A stretch of DNA of 44,592 bases from Escherichia phage BEK1-1, in the sequence record MN158212.1; one strand, 5' to 3'. The position numbers and the translations under genes are program-made. Every line of letters starts with the position of its first letter. Position 1 is the first letter of the stretch. This document shows, piece by piece, positions 2,824-40,688 of this stretch. Below the pieces are notes generated by a model that had not been told where the DNA came from, made no database searches, and saw only the letters and a list, made by a program, of their open reading frames with translations.

Positions 2824-2927
2824 TTATTGCTGATGGTGCATTGGTATAGCTGCCGTGCAATACTGTATAAATCCACATGATACTAAAATTATAACCGGAA
2901 CACTCCAGAACAGTAGTTACATGATAT

Positions 2928-2985
2928 ACACAGTAATATATATAATAATAATAATAATATTAAAAGGTTGATATATATAGATATT
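2928..2985. repeat. AT-rich element copy 1: ACACAGTA-(ATA)n-TAAAAGGTTGATATATATAGATATT
   Basis: Near-identical copy at about 29732..29797 with a different number of ATA units; core TATCAACCTTTTA (minus strand) fits the IHF consensus WATCAANNNNTTR. Confidence 0.7.
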
Positions 2986-3104
2986 TTAATGTAACTATTG
3001 CGTAAATTGGCGTAACAGAGCGTATATCATTTTTCGCGGATGGGATTGCATACATCGAGTTACATCGGTTACGTGTAACTGTGATTTGTGGTGAAATTGG
3101 CGAT

Positions 3105-3150
3105 AAATAGCACTAATTGCTAAAGACAACTGACTATCTTTAGGTATATT
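3105..3150 (+). promoter_or_regulatory. box promoter (AAATAGCACTAATTGCTAAA, 20 nt, TATATT) upstream of the Rha-like gene
   Basis: Direct reading. Confidence 0.5.
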
Positions 3151-3222: not shown

Positions 3223-3870
3223 ATGAACATTGAAGTGTGCAAAGAACAATCAAAAACCATGATGAGCACAAAGGAAATCGCAGAGTTAACCGGCAAACGT
3301 CATGATCACGTCGTTCGCGACACAAAGGAAATGATCAATGAATTGTTACATTATAACGATGCCCCAGATTTGGGTCATGATGATTATCAACTACTTACAG
3401 ACAATCGAGGCTATACATCTGAGATTTTACTCAACAAGGAACTAACCGAAACGCTAATCACTGGCTACAGTGTCGTACTTCGCCACAAAGTAATCCGCAG
3501 GCTTCATGAACTTGAGGCTTTAGTTAAAAAACAAGCGGAAGTAATCAGCCAGATGGTAAGCATTGATGAGCTTAAAGAGGTTCGAATGATGCTTGGTGTG
3601 GCTAATGCGCAGAATGCACACCTGAGCCAGCGCATTGTTGCAGAGCAAAGAATAAATGAGATCTTACTCATGGATAAGAGTACCGATGAAAAACTAGACA
3701 TGCTGGCTTGTGAGGCTCGCCAGTGTTGGGTTAGTCGATCTGATGAGATGGAGGAAAGATTTAAGTATGAAGCCCAATGCTTCGCCCTTAAAGAAAAGAA
3801 TGATGCGCTGACCGGATTGATTGAGAATAATCTCGGCATTGACATCAAGCTGCTGCTGGAAAAGAAATAG
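3223..3870 (+). CDS. Rha-family phage regulatory protein (antirepressor-like)
   Basis: N-terminal ...STKEIAELTGKRHDHVVRDTKEM... resembles the Rha signature; C-terminal half coiled-coil-like; RBS GGAGAG. Confidence 0.5.
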   Translation: MNIEVCKEQSKTMMSTKEIAELTGKRHDHVVRDTKEMINELLHYNDAPDLGHDDYQLLTDNRGYTSEILLNKELTETLITGYSVVLRHKVIRRLHELEALVKKQAEVISQMVSIDELKEVRMMLGVANAQNAHLSQRIVAEQRINEILLMDKSTDEKLDMLACEARQCWVSRSDEMEERFKYEAQCFALKEKNDALTGLIENNLGIDIKLLLEKK

Positions 3871-3910: not shown

Positions 3911-3945
3911 TACTCCATCGAAACGAAATTACTAAGGAATACAAA

Positions 3946-5141: not shown

Positions 5142-8100
5142 AGAAAGTACCTACTACAACTCTCCCTCCTCCAGGCAAGTTAACCGTGATTCCGTTTCCG
5201 TTAATCTGTACCGTATTGTTTGTTCCGTTAAAGGCGAATTCACCACTGTTGGCGTACAGTTTGCCGCGAATCTCAGCGTTACCAGACTTATCAATCCTCC
5301 ATCCTGTGCTTCCTGCCACGTAGTTGCTGGACTGAATAAAGTCACCAATCTTCGCGTTAGTAATTGAGCCATCTCCGATTACTGCGCTTTGGATGATTAC
5401 GTTTCCGTTCTCTACAACGAAGGGTAGTTGCCATTGACCGGAGCCAGAACCAATGCCATTACTGATTGCGAATCTGTTTGCGTCAAAAATAAACTGACTG
5501 CGAACATTATCACCAGTGCCAACTAGCTCCATGCTCATGCCGGATGAATAAGTCTGACCATTGTATTTCAGGCCAAGACTAATTCCGTACTGTACACCAG
5601 TTGACGTGGCATTAGAGAAAGCGTCTAACTTCTGGTTTAGAGCCGCCTCGTTTTCGCCAAGTCTTGCTGATAGAGCCGTGTCTGCTGTAGTCCTTGCTTC
5701 TGTCTCTGTGGCTAATGCAGTCTTAACTTCAGTAATCGATGCTACAACTTCATCATCTATCTGCGCTTTAAGGGCCGTTAGAGCCTCTACGCGTGCCTGA
5801 GTTTCATCGGCTATGAGATTCACCGCCTGAACATATTCAGCCTTACGTTTGCCGTTCTCCTTAGTCATGCGACGAACATCAGTGTCATTAGCCAATGCGT
5901 TCTCAAGAATTGACTCTGCCTGATTCTGAATATCCTGATTCTTTTGAATCGCATTCTGCTCCAGGTATTTGAATCCTTCAGAACCCTCAATATCAACCTT
6001 GATGTAATCATTGATAATGTTAGCGTCGTCAGTACTCATGCCTCTAGCAAAATAAGACCAATCAGAGGTATTTCCGATTCTGTCAATCAATCTTGCGCGA
6101 TACCAGATGACCTTACCTGGCTGAATTGGCGTATGCCAGTACTCATAGGCTGGATAAGGTAGTAAAGTCAGCGAGCTTGCGTTATCTGGATTGTAAGTAC
6201 CATCGCCATTATCAGGAACCTGCTGAAGCTCAGTGTAAGCAGTATCACCAGAGCCTTCAGGGAAACCCCACTTAACACGAATGCCGAATACCTCATCTGT
6301 TGATGCCGTGATAACAGTAGGCGCAGATGGGCGACCAATCTTGCCAGTTAGCGATACCGTTACAATGTCAGACCAGGAAGACACGTTTTCAGTATCTGAT
6401 ACGCTGCGAACCCTAACGTCATAGATTCCTGCGTAAATACCTTCGATATCAACCTCTGTGCTAGCTGTTCTGGGTACGTTAATCCAGTTGCCATTCTCTT
6501 TTCTCCACTGAACATTGTAGGTTTTAGCGTATGGAGCTTTATCCCATCCGATAACCATCGTCTCAACCGACAAGCCCTGAACAACCTTGCTATAACTTGA
6601 CACGGTCAAGTTTTCTGGTGGCGACAATCTGTCAGGCTCTACGATTGAAGTCGGGCGGTCAACAATGTTTACGCCATAATCAATCTCGTCATACTTGTTA
6701 GGGTCGTACTCCACTGCTGTAATCGTATACTGGAATGAATCCGATCCATCAGAATCTGCTTTTTGAATCCCGGTCACAACATATTGCTGAAGAGCAAGAT
6801 TGTCCTTATCAATTGCGAACACAGTATCAGGTTGAGCTACAAAGCTAAAAGCAGTATTCAGGTTGATGGTTCTACCGTCTTCCGAAATGCTGGCAATAGT
6901 TCTCGCTTCAGGGCTTCCGTCGGGTTTGTTCAGAAGAATTCTGTCACCTGGAGCTGCGTCAACTTTAAACTGGGTAAAAACCTGCAATCCCTGAACTGAT
7001 TCAATACGACCGGAAAGGTTTAACTGATAGTTACTAGACCATGCCGCGTCATTAACCGCAATGACCTCTCCAATCATCGGAATCATGCCCTCCAACCCAG
7101 TGGTGAAGCTGATAGTTTCGCTTCTCAGGTTGGTTTTCAGGAGCCATCTGCCGCGTCTGTTTGCTTCACTTCTCCGCGTACATCCAATTGCCGTAAGGTC
7201 GACTGGATTAAATCCGAATCTGCGAGTAGCTTCCAGTTCAAATACCGGCTCAACATCCTGCTGATAGTTGTTCTCCACATCATCAAACTGAACGTTCGCC
7301 GTAGTGTAAAGGCTCTTATCACTGGCAAAGGTGCGACTGAACAATCCGTTTACAACGTTATCATTCGTGAAGATGTAAGATGGGTTGCGAGGCTTATCAA
7401 CCACTATACCAATCTTTTCGCCATCATAGAAAGTCAGGCCACGGAAGATTGAGCAGATATCACGAATTAGCGTGTAGGCCTCAACCTTATTCTGTACAAC
7501 CATATCGCACAGGTAGCGCGGCTCCATTCCACCTTTTCCATCAGGAACCATCTGGTCGCAGAATTGCGCAGCCTCGTAAAGACCCCACTTATCAATCTCC
7601 ACGCCCAACTCTCGTTGATCAAGGCCATAGCGACGGTTTGTCACTAAGTCATAAAGAACCCAAGCTGGGTTATTTGACCATGCCATTTTGAACAGTCCAT
7701 TCCATGTTCCGCTGTAAGTTCTTGCTTCCGGGTCGTAGTTGGTTGGGACCTGAATCAGCTTCCAGCGCTTCTTGATAGAGATTGTCGGTATTCCGTTAGG
7801 GAAAAGGTCAGATCCAAACTCAACATAAACCAGAGCCGTAAGCGGATAGCGGAATTTAGCGTCAATTACTTCCTGATAGGTTGTAATCTGCATCCCGTTA
7901 ACCAATGTGCTACTTGTTGAATCCGCTGTAATCTTTCGGATGCGAACCAATGCGCTATCAAATTCAGCCGGAAGGTTCACTCGAATGCTGCGGTCGTAAC
8001 CTGTAGTTGTCTTTCCGTTGGCAACTCCTCGAGTATATTCCTGATAAGCGCCACCATTAACAGAAAGATCAATCGCATACTCGCAGGTTGTTCCGTTCAG

Positions 8101-8511
8101 GTCTCCATTGCTTTCTTGCTTAACCAGTCTAGGCCAATATAGCTTTACACGAATCGCTGATAGCTGAGTATTGTTAACCGCAATGATGTACGGGGTATCG
8201 TTTTTGATTTCCCTGGAGACCTGAACCTCTGAGTTTGCACCATCAAGGCCAGAGATATAGTCCTGATACTGCGTTCCAGGGCGAAACTCAGCCCGAACAC
8301 CTTCGTAGTTGTAGCTACCATCCTGGTTTTGCACCGGAACGTCAGCAAGGTATAAATCCTTCATTGAGAAGTTAGGGTCAACCTCACCATCAGCAACCGC
8401 CAAAAGAACCTTAACCTTGTTAAGTGAAATAAGGTTGTCTTCCTGCTCCACTGGTTGATGCGGCTTCTGACTACCACCCTTAGCACCATAAATCTTAATA
8501 TCTTCAGCCAT
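5140..8511 (-). CDS. tail tip / host-specificity protein (lambda gpJ-like)
   Basis: Track ORF 5140..8550, about 1120 aa from internal ATG (MAEDIKIYGAKGG...) with GAGG RBS; size and position after the I/K/L/M homologues. Confidence 0.8.
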   Translation of the reverse strand: MAEDIKIYGAKGGSQKPHQPVEQEDNLISLNKVKVLLAVADGEVDPNFSMKDLYLADVPVQNQDGSYNYEGVRAEFRPGTQYQDYISGLDGANSEVQVSREIKNDTPYIIAVNNTQLSAIRVKLYWPRLVKQESNGDLNGTTCEYAIDLSVNGGAYQEYTRGVANGKTTTGYDRSIRVNLPAEFDSALVRIRKITADSTSSTLVNGMQITTYQEVIDAKFRYPLTALVYVEFGSDLFPNGIPTISIKKRWKLIQVPTNYDPEARTYSGTWNGLFKMAWSNNPAWVLYDLVTNRRYGLDQRELGVEIDKWGLYEAAQFCDQMVPDGKGGMEPRYLCDMVVQNKVEAYTLIRDICSIFRGLTFYDGEKIGIVVDKPRNPSYIFTNDNVVNGLFSRTFASDKSLYTTANVQFDDVENNYQQDVEPVFELEATRRFGFNPVDLTAIGCTRRSEANRRGRWLLKTNLRSETISFTTGLEGMIPMIGEVIAVNDAAWSSNYQLNLSGRIESVQGLQVFTQFKVDAAPGDRILLNKPDGSPEARTIASISEDGRTINLNTAFSFVAQPDTVFAIDKDNLALQQYVVTGIQKADSDGSDSFQYTITAVEYDPNKYDEIDYGVNIVDRPTSIVEPDRLSPPENLTVSSYSKVVQGLSVETMVIGWDKAPYAKTYNVQWRKENGNWINVPRTASTEVDIEGIYAGIYDVRVRSVSDTENVSSWSDIVTVSLTGKIGRPSAPTVITASTDEVFGIRVKWGFPEGSGDTAYTELQQVPDNGDGTYNPDNASSLTLLPYPAYEYWHTPIQPGKVIWYRARLIDRIGNTSDWSYFARGMSTDDANIINDYIKVDIEGSEGFKYLEQNAIQKNQDIQNQAESILENALANDTDVRRMTKENGKRKAEYVQAVNLIADETQARVEALTALKAQIDDEVVASITEVKTALATETEARTTADTALSARLGENEAALNQKLDAFSNATSTGVQYGISLGLKYNGQTYSSGMSMELVGTGDNVRSQFIFDANRFAISNGIGSGSGQWQLPFVVENGNVIIQSAVIGDGSITNAKIGDFIQSSNYVAGSTGWRIDKSGNAEIRGKLYANSGEFAFNGTNNTVQINGNGITVNLPGGGRVVVGTF

Positions 8512-14783: not shown

Positions 14784-15032
14784 TTACTTAGTGTTTTCTT
14801 TTGCAATCTTAGCAGCCGAGTCCTTACAAACCTCTTTGCCGTATTTCATGATTTGGTCAACTTTGCCACCTACAAGTTCCTGACATGCTCGCTCAGCCTT
14901 AGCAAATTCAACAGTATATTTGTTTGCCTTGCTATTGGCATCAGCCTCGCCAGTTGGGTTAACAATCTGAACTACCGCATAAAAAGCAACCAGAACCGCA
15001 GTAAGTTTGATGATGTTTTTAACGTTATTCAT
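14784..15032 (-). CDS. small secreted or membrane-anchored protein (82 aa), moron candidate
   Basis: N-terminal hydrophobic segment MNNVKNIIKLTAVLVAFYAVVQIV; has its own box promoter; sits between major tail and chaperone genes. Confidence 0.45.
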   Translation of the reverse strand: MNNVKNIIKLTAVLVAFYAVVQIVNPTGEADANSKANKYTVEFAKAERACQELVGGKVDQIMKYGKEVCKDSAAKIAKENTK

Positions 15033-15065
15033 TTCTTTAGTCTCTCATTTCGTTTCGATGAGTTA

Positions 15066-15111
15066 ACTATACAGCAAAACTGAATAAGTGCTTTATCAAA
15101 AAGTGCTATGC
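15066..15111 (-). promoter_or_regulatory. box promoter (variant box, 20 nt, TATAGT, leader AACTCATCGAAACGAAA) upstream of the 82-aa gene
   Basis: Direct reading of the reverse complement. Confidence 0.5.
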
Positions 15112-15131
15112 AATAAAAAACCCTCCGAAGA
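15105..15131 (-). terminator. intrinsic terminator after the major tail protein gene
   Basis: Minus strand AAACCCTC-TTCGG-AGGGTTT followed by TTTTTATTGC. Confidence 0.7.
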
Positions 15132-17766: not shown

Positions 17767-17793
17767 GTAAAAAAAAGCCCTCCGAAGAGGGCC
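17767..17793 (-). terminator. intrinsic terminator after the major capsid gene
   Basis: Minus strand GCCCTC-TTCG-GAGGGC followed by TTTTTTTT. Confidence 0.75.
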
Positions 17794-17798
17794 ATTTA

Positions 17799-18743
17799 TT
17801 AGATTAAGGTAATACCTTTGATTACGGCCATCGTCAGAGGGCGATAAACGATCAAACCTGTAGCTTTTGATGTTACAGGGTACTTAAAGTGCAAGTCCTT
17901 AGGTTGTCCTGGAAGAACGTTGGTAGCTTCCGGAATCTCGATAGACATATTGAGTGGACTCTTCTCAAACGCCAGAGCAGCCTTACCACCTGCGCCATCG
18001 TAGTTGTCCAGGAACTGCAAGAAACGAATGGTCAAACCTGGGTTATTACGAGTGAACAGTTCACCGTAGCTCAAATTTGTCTGCGGAACCAGTTGCTGCA
18101 TAATTCGACGAGCAGAGGCCGGAAGCAGAATGTCAGTCACATGATGGAGGCCCTGTGTTGAAGTCTCAACTGCGTCAATCATCGCGGTGATATCATCAAT
18201 TGCGTTGTCCGGAATATTCCAACTTGGAGTTGCAACAACGTTGTTGATGTTCGGCTGGTCGAATACGCTCACGATGCCGTGCGGGGCGGAACCAGACCAC
18301 ACCAGTTTATCCAGCAGGTTGTCGTGCGCTTCGAAAGCCAGGGCTTGCTTGCGAGTCGACAGGGACTGACCAGTTGCGGCGCCAGCTTTAATTTCATCAA
18401 TAGAAATCAGGAATGCGTTACCGAAACGGAACACTTTGCCTTGTTTCTCGTTCATAAACGCATCAACCAGCGGCAAGTCGTCAGAGTAATCAGCGATAAT
18501 CTGAGCAATGCCAGCACCATCAAATTCTGGGTATTCGAAATACTTCGCGTGACCAGGAATTTCATTTGTTACAGGGAAGATATTAACAACTGAGTTTTCT
18601 GCGTATTCTTTTTCGTAAGCACGGTTCAGAGCAGCGGTAAGCTGGCTAACGGTCCAGATACCAGCGGCATCAGCTTTTTCTACGCCCATTTGCTCGAGGT
18701 GAGCAGTGATTTTTGCTTGTTCTGCGTCAAATTTAATGGCCAT
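17799..18743 (-). CDS. major capsid protein
   Basis: 314 aa; position after scaffold and decoration-like genes; flanked by terminators and a TATAAT-containing promoter. Confidence 0.65.
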   Translation of the reverse strand: MAIKFDAEQAKITAHLEQMGVEKADAAGIWTVSQLTAALNRAYEKEYAENSVVNIFPVTNEIPGHAKYFEYPEFDGAGIAQIIADYSDDLPLVDAFMNEKQGKVFRFGNAFLISIDEIKAGAATGQSLSTRKQALAFEAHDNLLDKLVWSGSAPHGIVSVFDQPNINNVVATPSWNIPDNAIDDITAMIDAVETSTQGLHHVTDILLPASARRIMQQLVPQTNLSYGELFTRNNPGLTIRFLQFLDNYDGAGGKAALAFEKSPLNMSIEIPEATNVLPGQPKDLHFKYPVTSKATGLIVYRPLTMAVIKGITLI

Positions 18744-18759
18744 TCTTTATTGTTCCTTT

Positions 18760-18800
18760 TCAGTTATGTGTCTACGGATTCATTATACACGAGTTTTTAA
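18760..18800 (-). promoter_or_regulatory. sigma70-like promoter (TTGCGT, 16 nt, TATAAT) in front of the capsid gene
   Basis: Reverse complement reads TTGCGTGGGTTAAAAACTCGTGTATAATG. Confidence 0.45.
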
Positions 18801-18813
18801 CCCACGCAATGGT

Positions 18814-18840
18814 GTAAAAAAACCTCCCGAAGGAGGCTTT
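18814..18840 (-). terminator. intrinsic terminator upstream of the capsid promoter
   Basis: Minus strand CCTCC-TTCG-GGAGG followed by TTTTTTT. Confidence 0.65.
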
Positions 18841-18854
18841 ATATATCTTAATTG

Positions 18855-22413: not shown

Positions 22414-22429
22414 GTTTTTCTCCAATAGA

Positions 22430-22450
22430 AAAGCCCCATATAGGGGCTTA
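22430..22450 (-). terminator. hairpin with short T-run between terminase and portal genes (weak)
   Basis: Minus strand AAGCCCC-TATAT-GGGGCTT followed by TTCTATT. Confidence 0.3.
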
Positions 22451-24860: not shown

Positions 24861-24938
24861 TGGCGCTCCGCACTGGATTCGAACCAGTAACCTACGACTT
24901 AGAAGGTCGTTGCTACTATCCTATTGAGCTAGCAGAGC
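24861..24938 (-). tRNA. tRNA-Arg (anticodon UCU)
   Basis: Minus strand reads GCTCTGC...TAGCTCAATAGGATAG...ACGACCTTCTAAGTCGT...CTGGTTCGAATCCAG...GCGGAGC-G-CCA; acceptor stem pairs 7/7 (one G-U); anticodon loop CT-TCT-AA; T-loop GGTTCGAATCC. Confidence 0.85.
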
Positions 24939-29452: not shown

Positions 29453-29731
29453 GTTGATACCTCGTTTCGTTTACTTCGTTTCAGTGATTGCCATCTTGCC
29501 ACTTGTTTACGTGTCGGTCAACGTATTTTTATGTCTATTTCATCGCGGATACGTTTTTCGGCCTCCAAGTTAGCGTCAGCACTGGTTGTAAACGTGCCGT
29601 ATCCCCTGTGTACAGTTTTGTAGGGTACTTTCCTATATATGTGCCTTTTTATTCCTACAATGTCATCCCATTCTGACAAGTGTCAGAATATCTGCACGGA
29701 ACATATCAACTATTGCCTCCGTGAGCGGTAT

Positions 29732-29797
29732 ACACAGTATACATATATATAATAATAATAATAATAATAAAGTAAAAGGTTGATATATATAGATATT
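29732..29797. repeat. AT-rich element copy 2: ACACAGTA-(ATA)n-TAAAAGGTTGATATATATAGATATT
   Basis: Near-identical to 2928..2985, with a longer ATA run. Confidence 0.7.
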
Positions 29798-29983
29798 ATA
29801 TTGTATATCGTGTGTATATCTCGCGTAAAAACGTAGGTTAGTGGTCACTAACTTTTGTGACGACACTGAGTATACGGAGGATACGCGTATATCGATGAGA
29901 ACCTTACCGATTGGTAAAAAATCAACTTGTATGGTAGTCCATCCATCTTTCATTCACTCACTCACCACTTTATTTTACTTTTC

Positions 29984-37696: not shown

Positions 37697-38110
37697 TGAA
37701 ATCATTTCTTCAAATGCTGCCAGGAAGCCCTCTCTACCGTAGGCAACTCCAGCGAAACCTCCTGATTCTCTCACGCTTTTAAGGAAGGACTTCTGTTCGT
37801 CACTGACTGGACTAGCTTGAGTTTTTCCCGCCCTCTTTAGCTCTATGGCCCCAAAAGGGTACTTTCCTCTAAGTGATTCAGGTATCAGGAATAAGCAGTC
37901 CGAAACCCCCTTAAGCAATCCTTTGGCCTGGTCCTTCCTTGCTTGTCCAATGGTCTTCTTACCCTCATTCACGCAGTGGAAAAATACCATCTCTGGATAG
38001 TTATACTTAACCCAATCAGAGCAAAAGATTTGTTCGTCATCCTCTTTCGGGCATGACTTAACCGGGCCAGGGTAAAACTCAATGTAATCAACTTTGTCTG
38101 TAATGTTCAT
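37691..38110 (-). CDS. VRR-NUC domain nuclease
   Basis: ...GVSDCLFLIPE...GAIELKRAGKTQASPVSDEQKSFL...GGFAGVA fits the VRR-NUC PD-(D/E)XK pattern; coupled to the helicase gene. Confidence 0.6.
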   Translation of the reverse strand: MNITDKVDYIEFYPGPVKSCPKEDDEQIFCSDWVKYNYPEMVFFHCVNEGKKTIGQARKDQAKGLLKGVSDCLFLIPESLRGKYPFGAIELKRAGKTQASPVSDEQKSFLKSVRESGGFAGVAYGREGFLAAFEEMISK

Positions 38111-40202: not shown

Positions 40203-40688
40203 ATGAATGCAGTCGACAAGCGAACCATTAACGGTAATAACGGAACCATCCGCACTGAAGACAAAAAGCAACGGAAACGACCTTCAGGTTACTACGTTTT
40301 GAAAGATGAGGTAAGGGCGGGTTTACGTGCGCGGCTGGAAATTGTTCTTGATTTCTTCGGCACAAAGGCAAATATGGCAAAGCAATTAAAGGTAACACCA
40401 CAGGCTGTAGAGGAATGGTTTAAGCGCGGCATGATTTCTGCGCGCGGGGCTCAACTCTCACACAACTACTACAAGCGAACCGGGGAAGGCTTTCGCGCCA
40501 CATTCTGCCGACCAGATCTGCAATTCGACGGCAACGGCAAGCCTCTTACTCTACGTTGCAAAAAGCGTCACATGCTGCGTGTTGTTACTGAGGCTGAATT
40601 AGCCACCAAGCCAGAGTGTCGATCATGGCGCAAGATTAAGGAAGAGAATCGCAAAAAGCGAGAAGCAGAGAAAAATAGCACGAATTGA
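40203..40688 (+). CDS. putative HTH DNA-binding regulator (161 aa)
   Basis: ...FGTKANMAKQLKVTPQAVEEWFKRGMIS... resembles a Cro/CI-type helix-turn-helix; basic N- and C-termini. Confidence 0.45.
   Translation: MNAVDKRTINGNNGTIRTEDKKQRKRPSGYYVLKDEVRAGLRARLEIVLDFFGTKANMAKQLKVTPQAVEEWFKRGMISARGAQLSHNYYKRTGEGFRATFCRPDLQFDGNGKPLTLRCKKRHMLRVVTEAELATKPECRSWRKIKEENRKKREAEKNSTN

Follow-up and report, generated by a model that had tools for sequence, protein, structure and literature searches.

Evidence for a separate transcription unit of the major capsid gene in the late region of a T1-like phage

The major capsid gene of Escherichia phage BEK1-1 very probably constitutes a transcription unit of its own, to judge from its sequence context. 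On the minus strand of the analyzed DNA, a stretch of 44.6 kb referred to here as the window, the order terminator, TATAAT promoter, capsid gene, and terminator was found by inspection of the sequence and by folding, in agreement with the original prediction. The reading that we prefer, with a probability of about 75%, is that of a largely monocistronic capsid unit inside a late region composed of successive terminator-bounded modules. The insulation ascribed to the unit in the original prediction is leaky rather than absolute: the gene has its own promoter and flanking terminators, conserved family-wide, but the unit is not sealed, as other late terminators need read-through.

The phage represented by the window is a T1-like siphophage and belongs to the subfamily Braunvirinae of the Drexlerviridae. 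Its nearest relative, Veterinaerplatzvirus vB_EcoS-12210I, showed 97.8% identity across the capsid region. The late module is carried by the minus strand and comprises terS (24551-24045), terL (24027-22462), and the genes for the portal (22425-21145), a MuF-like head protein (21188-20457), the prohead protease (20447-19362), a decoration-like head protein of 164 aa (19349-18855), and the major capsid protein of 314 aa (17799-18743). An 81-aa gene (17704-17459) and the connectors come next, followed by the genes for the major tail protein (15799-15143) and the tape measure (14074-11093). The capsid protein matched PHROG 264 'major head protein' (E 1.4e-90) and is homologous to T1 gp47. The gene preceding the capsid promoter, previously taken for a scaffold gene, was found to encode the decoration-like head protein.

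Terminator 1 (AAAGCCTCCTTCGGGAGGTTTTTTT, 18816..18840, minus strand) ends the head-assembly unit that extends from terS to the decoration-like gene. It has a stem at 18837-18823 with a UUCG loop and is followed by seven U; its folding energy was -12.3 kcal/mol (z -3.1 versus shuffled controls). The minus-strand terminator scan did not call it, and it was read by eye and then folded. Six nucleotides separate terminator 1 from the -35 hexamer TTGCGT (18804..18809), which matches TTGACA at 3/6 positions, i.e., in the TTG core. The -35 is followed by a spacer of 16 nt (18803-18788) and by the -10 hexamer TATAAT (18782..18787), identical to the consensus at 6/6 positions. The original prediction had recognized TATAAT, TTGCGT, and the 16 nt between them, but the range that it quoted for the promoter (18760..18800) left the -35 at 18809-18804 just outside. 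An extended -10 was ruled out, as GTG and not TGn precedes TATAAT. Given the position of the -10 and sigma-70 geometry, transcription is predicted to start at about 18775 and to produce a 5' leader of approximately 32 nt (18744..18775). The AAGGA Shine-Dalgarno motif (18758-18754) lies within the 38-nt stretch between the -10 and the capsid gene. Terminator 2 (GGCCCTCTTCGGAGGGCTTTTTTTT, 17769..17793, minus strand) starts 5 nt past the capsid stop codon and consists of a 7-bp stem, a UUCG loop, and eight U (-14.0 kcal/mol, z -3.7 versus shuffled controls). Both elements have what defines an intrinsic terminator, namely a GC-rich hairpin and a U-run of at least 6 on the coding strand in an intergenic position. 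The seven top-scoring minus-strand terminator-like sites of the scan were all located on the coding strand in the intergenic gaps of the late operon.

The third perfect TATAAT of the region (17740-17735, minus strand), omitted from the original prediction, lies 28 nt past terminator 2 and ahead of the 81-aa gene. Its -35 is poor and TG is lacking, which makes it a candidate for a promoter that relies on the -10 only. It is kept in the Braunvirinae and Rogunavirinae and absent from the T1-type phages, in which the next gene abuts the terminator. The one match in the search against Rfam was a tRNA (24938-24864); within the capsid unit and its surroundings, no known RNA element was found. Folding of the whole predicted capsid mRNA revealed nothing informative.

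The strongest argument for the capsid promoter comes from its conservation. With the capsid protein as the query, we collected 80 Drexlerviridae loci (capsid identity 51–99%). Each of the 70 distinct sequences upstream of the capsid gene had as its best sigma-70-type site the same homologous TTGnnn-16 nt-TATnnT (17 nt in two of them), placed 36–53 nt before the ATG. The TTG and TATnnT motifs were invariant (70/70) among 11 different -35 hexamers and six different -10 hexamers, so that the variation was confined to positions weakly read by sigma-70 and the strongly read ones were fixed. In the DTL-type phages, the sequence above the -10 is unrelated, yet TTGATT is present at exactly 16 nt. The promoter also remains with the capsid gene despite the genes inserted after the decoration gene in DTL, phiJLA23, and Phleasolo. 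The stretch separating the decoration-like gene from the capsid promoter is a hot spot of insertion and carries 1–3 kb of additional genes in several relatives (7070-8472 in DTL, locus L007; 7018-8011 in phiJLA23, L008; 3978-7055 in Phleasolo, L009). Among the inserted genes are ORFs annotated as DNA polymerase and an SGNH hydrolase.

The flanks of the gene were conserved as well. Among the Braunvirinae, the 66 nt from the -35 to the ATG and the 94-nt gap downstream of the capsid gene were each 92–100% identical, versus 67–81% at the four-fold sites of the capsid gene. Both non-coding flanks of the capsid gene evolve slower than synonymous sites and are under purifying selection. A hairpin with a U-run was present at most 80 nt past the capsid stop codon in 65/65 distinct downstream sequences, which use more than ten unrelated stems, versus 1/800 control windows. 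A terminator ahead of the capsid -35 was detected in 43 of the 77 distinct sequences of the family, again with unrelated stems. The record of phage EC3a annotates both terminators flanking the capsid gene. In EC3a and ACG-M12, an extra 12 nt lie between terminator 1 and the capsid promoter, and this insertion excludes the terminator T-run as a fixed-distance UP element of the promoter.

A similar arrangement was noticed ahead of terS, as the original prediction had stated. A terminator (24618-24595, minus strand, dG -12.5) closes the early/tRNA unit and is followed, 14 nt past its T-run, by an extended -10 TGgTATAAT without a -35 (24583-24575), which serves terS and terL. The junction is conserved out to T1: the position of the terminator is shared by Rtp, JLA23, and T1, where the stems differ, and the extended -10 is kept from the Braunvirinae to T1 as TGgTATAAT, TGgTACAAT, and TGgTAAAAT. 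The tRNA gene (24864-24938, minus strand), annotated as tRNA-Arg tct in relatives, lies inside the unit closed by this terminator. The terminator that follows the major tail gene (15137-15115, minus strand) presents a contrasting case, with a promoter of the box type next to it (box 15109-15091, TATAGT 15071-15066). In the Rogunavirinae, a terminator T-run past the major tail gene abuts an extended -10 (GGGGCTTTTTTTATGTTATAAT; about 11600-11640 in L008 and about 10630-10670 in L009), and the same position in the Braunvirinae is occupied by the box promoter.

According to the preferred reading, host RNA polymerase with sigma-70 would start at the terS extended -10 and transcribe the head-assembly genes, and terminator 1 would stop much of this transcription. 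Fresh initiation would take place 40 bp downstream at the capsid promoter, at the predicted start, and would give a monocistronic capsid mRNA of about 1 kb ending at terminator 2. The hairpin of this terminator should also shield and stabilize the 3' end of the capsid mRNA, and the post-capsid TATAAT would restart transcription for the 81-aa gene. The expected effect is a capsid mRNA level uncoupled from that of the neighbors, since a head would take several hundred capsid subunits versus small numbers (a dozen copies or fewer) of portal, protease, terminase, and connectors. We infer the capsid start site, the termination efficiencies, and the independence of an activator; a literature search found no mapping of transcript 5' or 3' ends for T1-like phages.

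Codon use agrees with the uncoupling of the capsid mRNA from the low-copy genes. The Fop of the capsid gene was 0.63 versus a genome mean of 0.50 ± 0.08, which places it among the top five codon-optimized genes (Fop 0.63–0.71) together with the major tail gene, the decoration-like gene, the 81-aa gene, and an 82-aa gene (14784-15032) that follows the major tail gene. Four of these five genes are directly upstream of a terminator. As both small genes are among the five highest, their products are probably abundant virion or assembly proteins. The original prediction had assigned the box-less promoters to a second class devoted to highly expressed genes. The distinct architecture (TTG at 16 nt, no box) was upheld but the specificity for expression was not: box-less promoters also drive the terminase genes, and the major tail gene, the most codon-optimized of all, lacks its own promoter and is followed by a box-driven unit.

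The genome-wide box (aaATAGCACnnnTTGnTAAA) is the 21-nt repeat already known from TLS, T1, Rtp, and Rogue1, the function of which was left open in a 2024 paper (PMC11447400). As expected from the original prediction, no match to the box was found in 18744-18854 on either strand, and by our own comparison the homologous spacer in the window keeps just 2 + 2 of the 10 box core positions. A motif of the T4-late type (TATAAATA) had no match either. When the definition of the E. coli marbox, 5'-gcannwwntgnnaaa-3' (PMC12052159), was applied to the window, 15 perfect matches were found versus 0.83 ± 0.93 expected. In the approximately 16 box sites, the first bases of the 15-mers are at 3110, 3870, 30087, 30732, 31317, and 40678 on the plus strand and at 1257, 15106, 25960, 26750, 27421, 27874, 28380, 35334, 37691, and 40187 on the minus strand. 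These sites all point forward, toward the downstream gene; a TAnnnT lies 19–21 nt past the 15-mer, at exactly 20 nt in 14 cases, and a -35 is absent from all. The box class may be defined by ATAGCACnnnTTGnTAAA lying 20 nt upstream of the -10 in the forward orientation, a definition into which the capsid promoter does not fall. About 20 perfect marbox matches with the geometry seen in the window are present in T1. Most box promoters of the window and of T1 carry, after their -10, the conserved initial transcribed sequence TAcyCCATCGAAACGA (e.g., 3911-3927 on the plus strand and 37650-37634, 26709-26693, and 15065-15049 on the minus strand). A weaker version of it follows the post-capsid TATAAT (CACTCAATCAGATAAAC).

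The geometry of the box sites is that of micF, a structurally characterized class II Rob/MarA/SoxS promoter of E. coli, in which the marbox GCACTGAATGTCAAA lies exactly 20 nt from the -10. The box promoters of the window resemble class II MarA/SoxS/Rob promoters, whereas the capsid, terS, and post-capsid promoters have no marbox. The box is asymmetric, as would suit an AraC-family protein bound as a monomer better than a dimer bound to a palindrome; for such an element, which is also always forward, a dimer operator of the form TAGCA-N5-TGCTA was less favored. Pfam searches of 20 of the larger non-structural ORFs detected no AraC/MarA-like phage protein, and the box activator would for this reason be host-encoded. 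We tentatively propose that the phage has promoters of two classes, one dependent on a host activator and one not: the approximately 16 boxes would act as class II marboxes of the MarA/SoxS/Rob type, and the terS, capsid, and post-capsid promoters would be activator-independent. This proposal is given somewhat less than even odds. In the literature searched, no paper joined the marbox with a phage genome, and Rob is reportedly held in inactive aggregates without an inducer, a caveat to the marbox reading, which may be regarded as a lead and not as a result.

The alternative that survives best, although we consider it unlikely, accepts the capsid promoter as real but makes it a regulated, true late promoter, delayed or boosted by a phage or host factor or by replication of the template. 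The head proteins of T1 are classically late, which speaks for such regulation, and a sigma-70 promoter without an evident regulator leaves the late timing unexplained by itself, a point that counts against the preferred reading. The phage also encodes regulators, the same Pfam scan having identified a Cro-like HTH protein (40203-40688) and a Rha-like protein (3223-3870). Further support comes from relatives outside the Braunvirinae and Rogunavirinae. In the Tunavirinae, the Webervirus-like phages, and other subfamilies, a reverse marbox exactly fills the 16-nt spacer of a capsid promoter with a weaker -10, e.g., TTGACC-GTTTAGCAATTCGTGC-TATTCT. This spacer marbox abuts both the -35 and the -10. 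The region in question spans 15062-15089 in T1 (locus L010; spacer site 15069-15083) and lies about 40–70 nt upstream of the capsid ATG in loci L022-L090. In T1, a further marbox is placed shortly past the terS -10 (8360-8380). In E. coli, a marbox in the spacer represses pbpG (PMC12052159). The spacer box thus suggests that the capsid promoters of the sister subfamilies are regulated. What argues against extending the regulation to the window is that here and in all Braunvirinae and Rogunavirinae the spacer is boxless on both strands and the -10 is consensus, and that the 111-nt gap before the capsid gene showed no further conserved repeat of the operator type. The capsid spacer marbox of the window has decayed. 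In the sister subfamilies, one factor could activate most units while keeping the capsid promoter off, and if replicating phage DNA titrated such a factor, expression could in this way switch from early to late.

Considerably less probable is the view that the late region yields a single long transcript, in which the hairpins would act as attenuators, processing sites, or stability elements, the TATAAT would be unused, and the capsid mRNA would arise from read-through and be enriched through stabilization by its 3' hairpin. This view draws on the terminators at 22449, 17453, 14111, and 8584. The first of them, a short-U terminator between terL and the portal gene (22429..22449), and those at 17453-17431 and 14111-14087 (all on the minus strand) have no promoter after them; at all four sites the next gene follows directly and leaves no space for a promoter, and therefore late transcription must read through. 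The U-runs of three of the four are only 3–4 long. Such obligatory read-through elsewhere counts against the preferred reading, as both capsid terminators may likewise be weak in vivo. The rule that a strong terminator is always accompanied by a promoter was considered and dropped: it was followed by 4/5 long-U and 0/3 short-U terminators, with the one at 8584-8563 as the exception, and these numbers are too small. The ordinary PWM score of the capsid promoter is also compatible with a long transcript. A promoter left unused, however, would explain neither the invariant TTG-16-TATnnT in 70/70 diverged sequences, nor the -35 rebuilt from unrelated DNA in the DTL-type phages, nor the promoter staying by the capsid gene past the upstream insertions.

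The sequence match alone does not distinguish the capsid promoter. In the genome-wide PWM scan it ranked about 17th of 40 sites scoring at least 9.5; its score was 10.5, and the best of 240 coding control windows of 120 nt each reached 9.5. The consensus scan did not list it because its -35 matches TTGACA at 3/6 positions only. In the 426 nt of the large sense-strand gaps of the late module, three perfect TATAAT were present versus approximately 0.13 expected (Poisson P ~3e-4, our own calculation). The PWM score does not carry the case for the promoter; conservation does. Although promoter-like sites in an 18-kb scan were as numerous as in shuffled sequences (29 vs 27.9), a chance juxtaposition of promoter- and terminator-like sequences in AT-rich intergenic DNA is extremely improbable and effectively refuted by the comparative data, i.e., by the conservation in the family, the control rates, and the slower-than-synonymous evolution.

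Several other features of the window were recorded. An AT-rich element of about 90–100 bp occurs in two direct copies (2925-3015 and 29729-29828, plus strand) 26.8 kb apart; it has the form TATACACAGTA..ATATATATAATAATAATAAT..AAAAGGTTGATATATATAGATATT with an (ATA)n run and is a possible origin or early control region. A perfect extended -10, TGaTATAAT, at 38146-38138 (minus strand), in coding sequence about 30 nt before the start of the VRR-NUC gene at 38110, may be an internal promoter. A second one, TGgTATAAT, within the MuF-like gene (20849-20841, minus strand) may be due to chance.

Altogether, these results provide a comparative and testable map of the late transcription units of T1-like phages, in which terminators with re-initiation are told apart from those with read-through. 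The map may be of use in the engineering of T1-like phages, which are widely used in therapy or are an industrial nuisance, and the capsid unit may serve as a natural, compact terminator-promoter-gene-terminator cassette. Of greater weight is the contrast with the box promoters. Should the box prove to function as a marbox, the transcription program of the whole phage family would depend on a stress regulator of the host, and the long-unexplained temporal control of T1 would become directly testable.

Promoter-coupled terminators of bacteria offer one point of comparison. These are tandem terminators and promoters in short intergenic regions between functionally related genes, defined by termination at most 35 bp upstream of the next start and by dual use of the DNA (bioRxiv 10.64898/2026.08.19.745784). 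The terS junction falls within this distance, with about 26 bp from the predicted 3' end to the predicted start. The predicted distance at the capsid junction, about 41 bp, is beyond the limit, and the hairpin is clear of the -35; the capsid elements are adjacent and not overlapping, and their spacing varies by 12 nt in EC3a and ACG-M12. The post-tail junction of the Rogunavirinae, with the T-run abutting TGtTATAAT, represents the canonical coupled form.

The arrangement of terminators and promoter around the capsid gene is not new, having been described in outline for T1. The late region of T1 was presented as terminator-flanked 'transcriptons' with RpoD promoters in the 2004 T1 genome paper, as far as the account of it in PMC11447400 goes. 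The capsid unit of the window answers to the same description, both being defined in silico. The T1 record annotates syntenic terminators before terS, between terL and the portal gene, after gp49, gp47 (capsid), gp46, and the major tail gene, and before the tape measure gene. There are differences, however. In T1, the unit consists of gp48 and the capsid gene, the capsid -10 is weaker (TATTAT), and a box is in the spacer, whereas the window has a consensus -10 and no box. In T1, a hairpin with a U-run is placed between the -10 and the ribosome-binding site, whereas in the window the terminator directly precedes the promoter. In the T1-type phages, this hairpin begins 0–5 nt after the capsid -10, so that the predicted start is contained in its 5' arm (hairpin at 15094-15118 in T1, L010; also in L045, L065, L069, L074, and L079-L090); it is absent from the annotation of the T1 record. 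Such a hairpin could end read-through from upstream and yet be missing from the transcripts of the capsid promoter.

The cassette of phage T7 composed of the phi10 promoter, gene 10, and Tphi is another known case: gene 10 has a strong promoter of its own and the main terminator after it, and gives the most abundant late mRNA. T7 transcribes the cassette with an RNA polymerase of its own from a phage-specific promoter, and no terminator lies immediately upstream. The capsid gene of the window is alike in having its own promoter and terminator, and differs from the T7 cassette in that its elements are of the host type.
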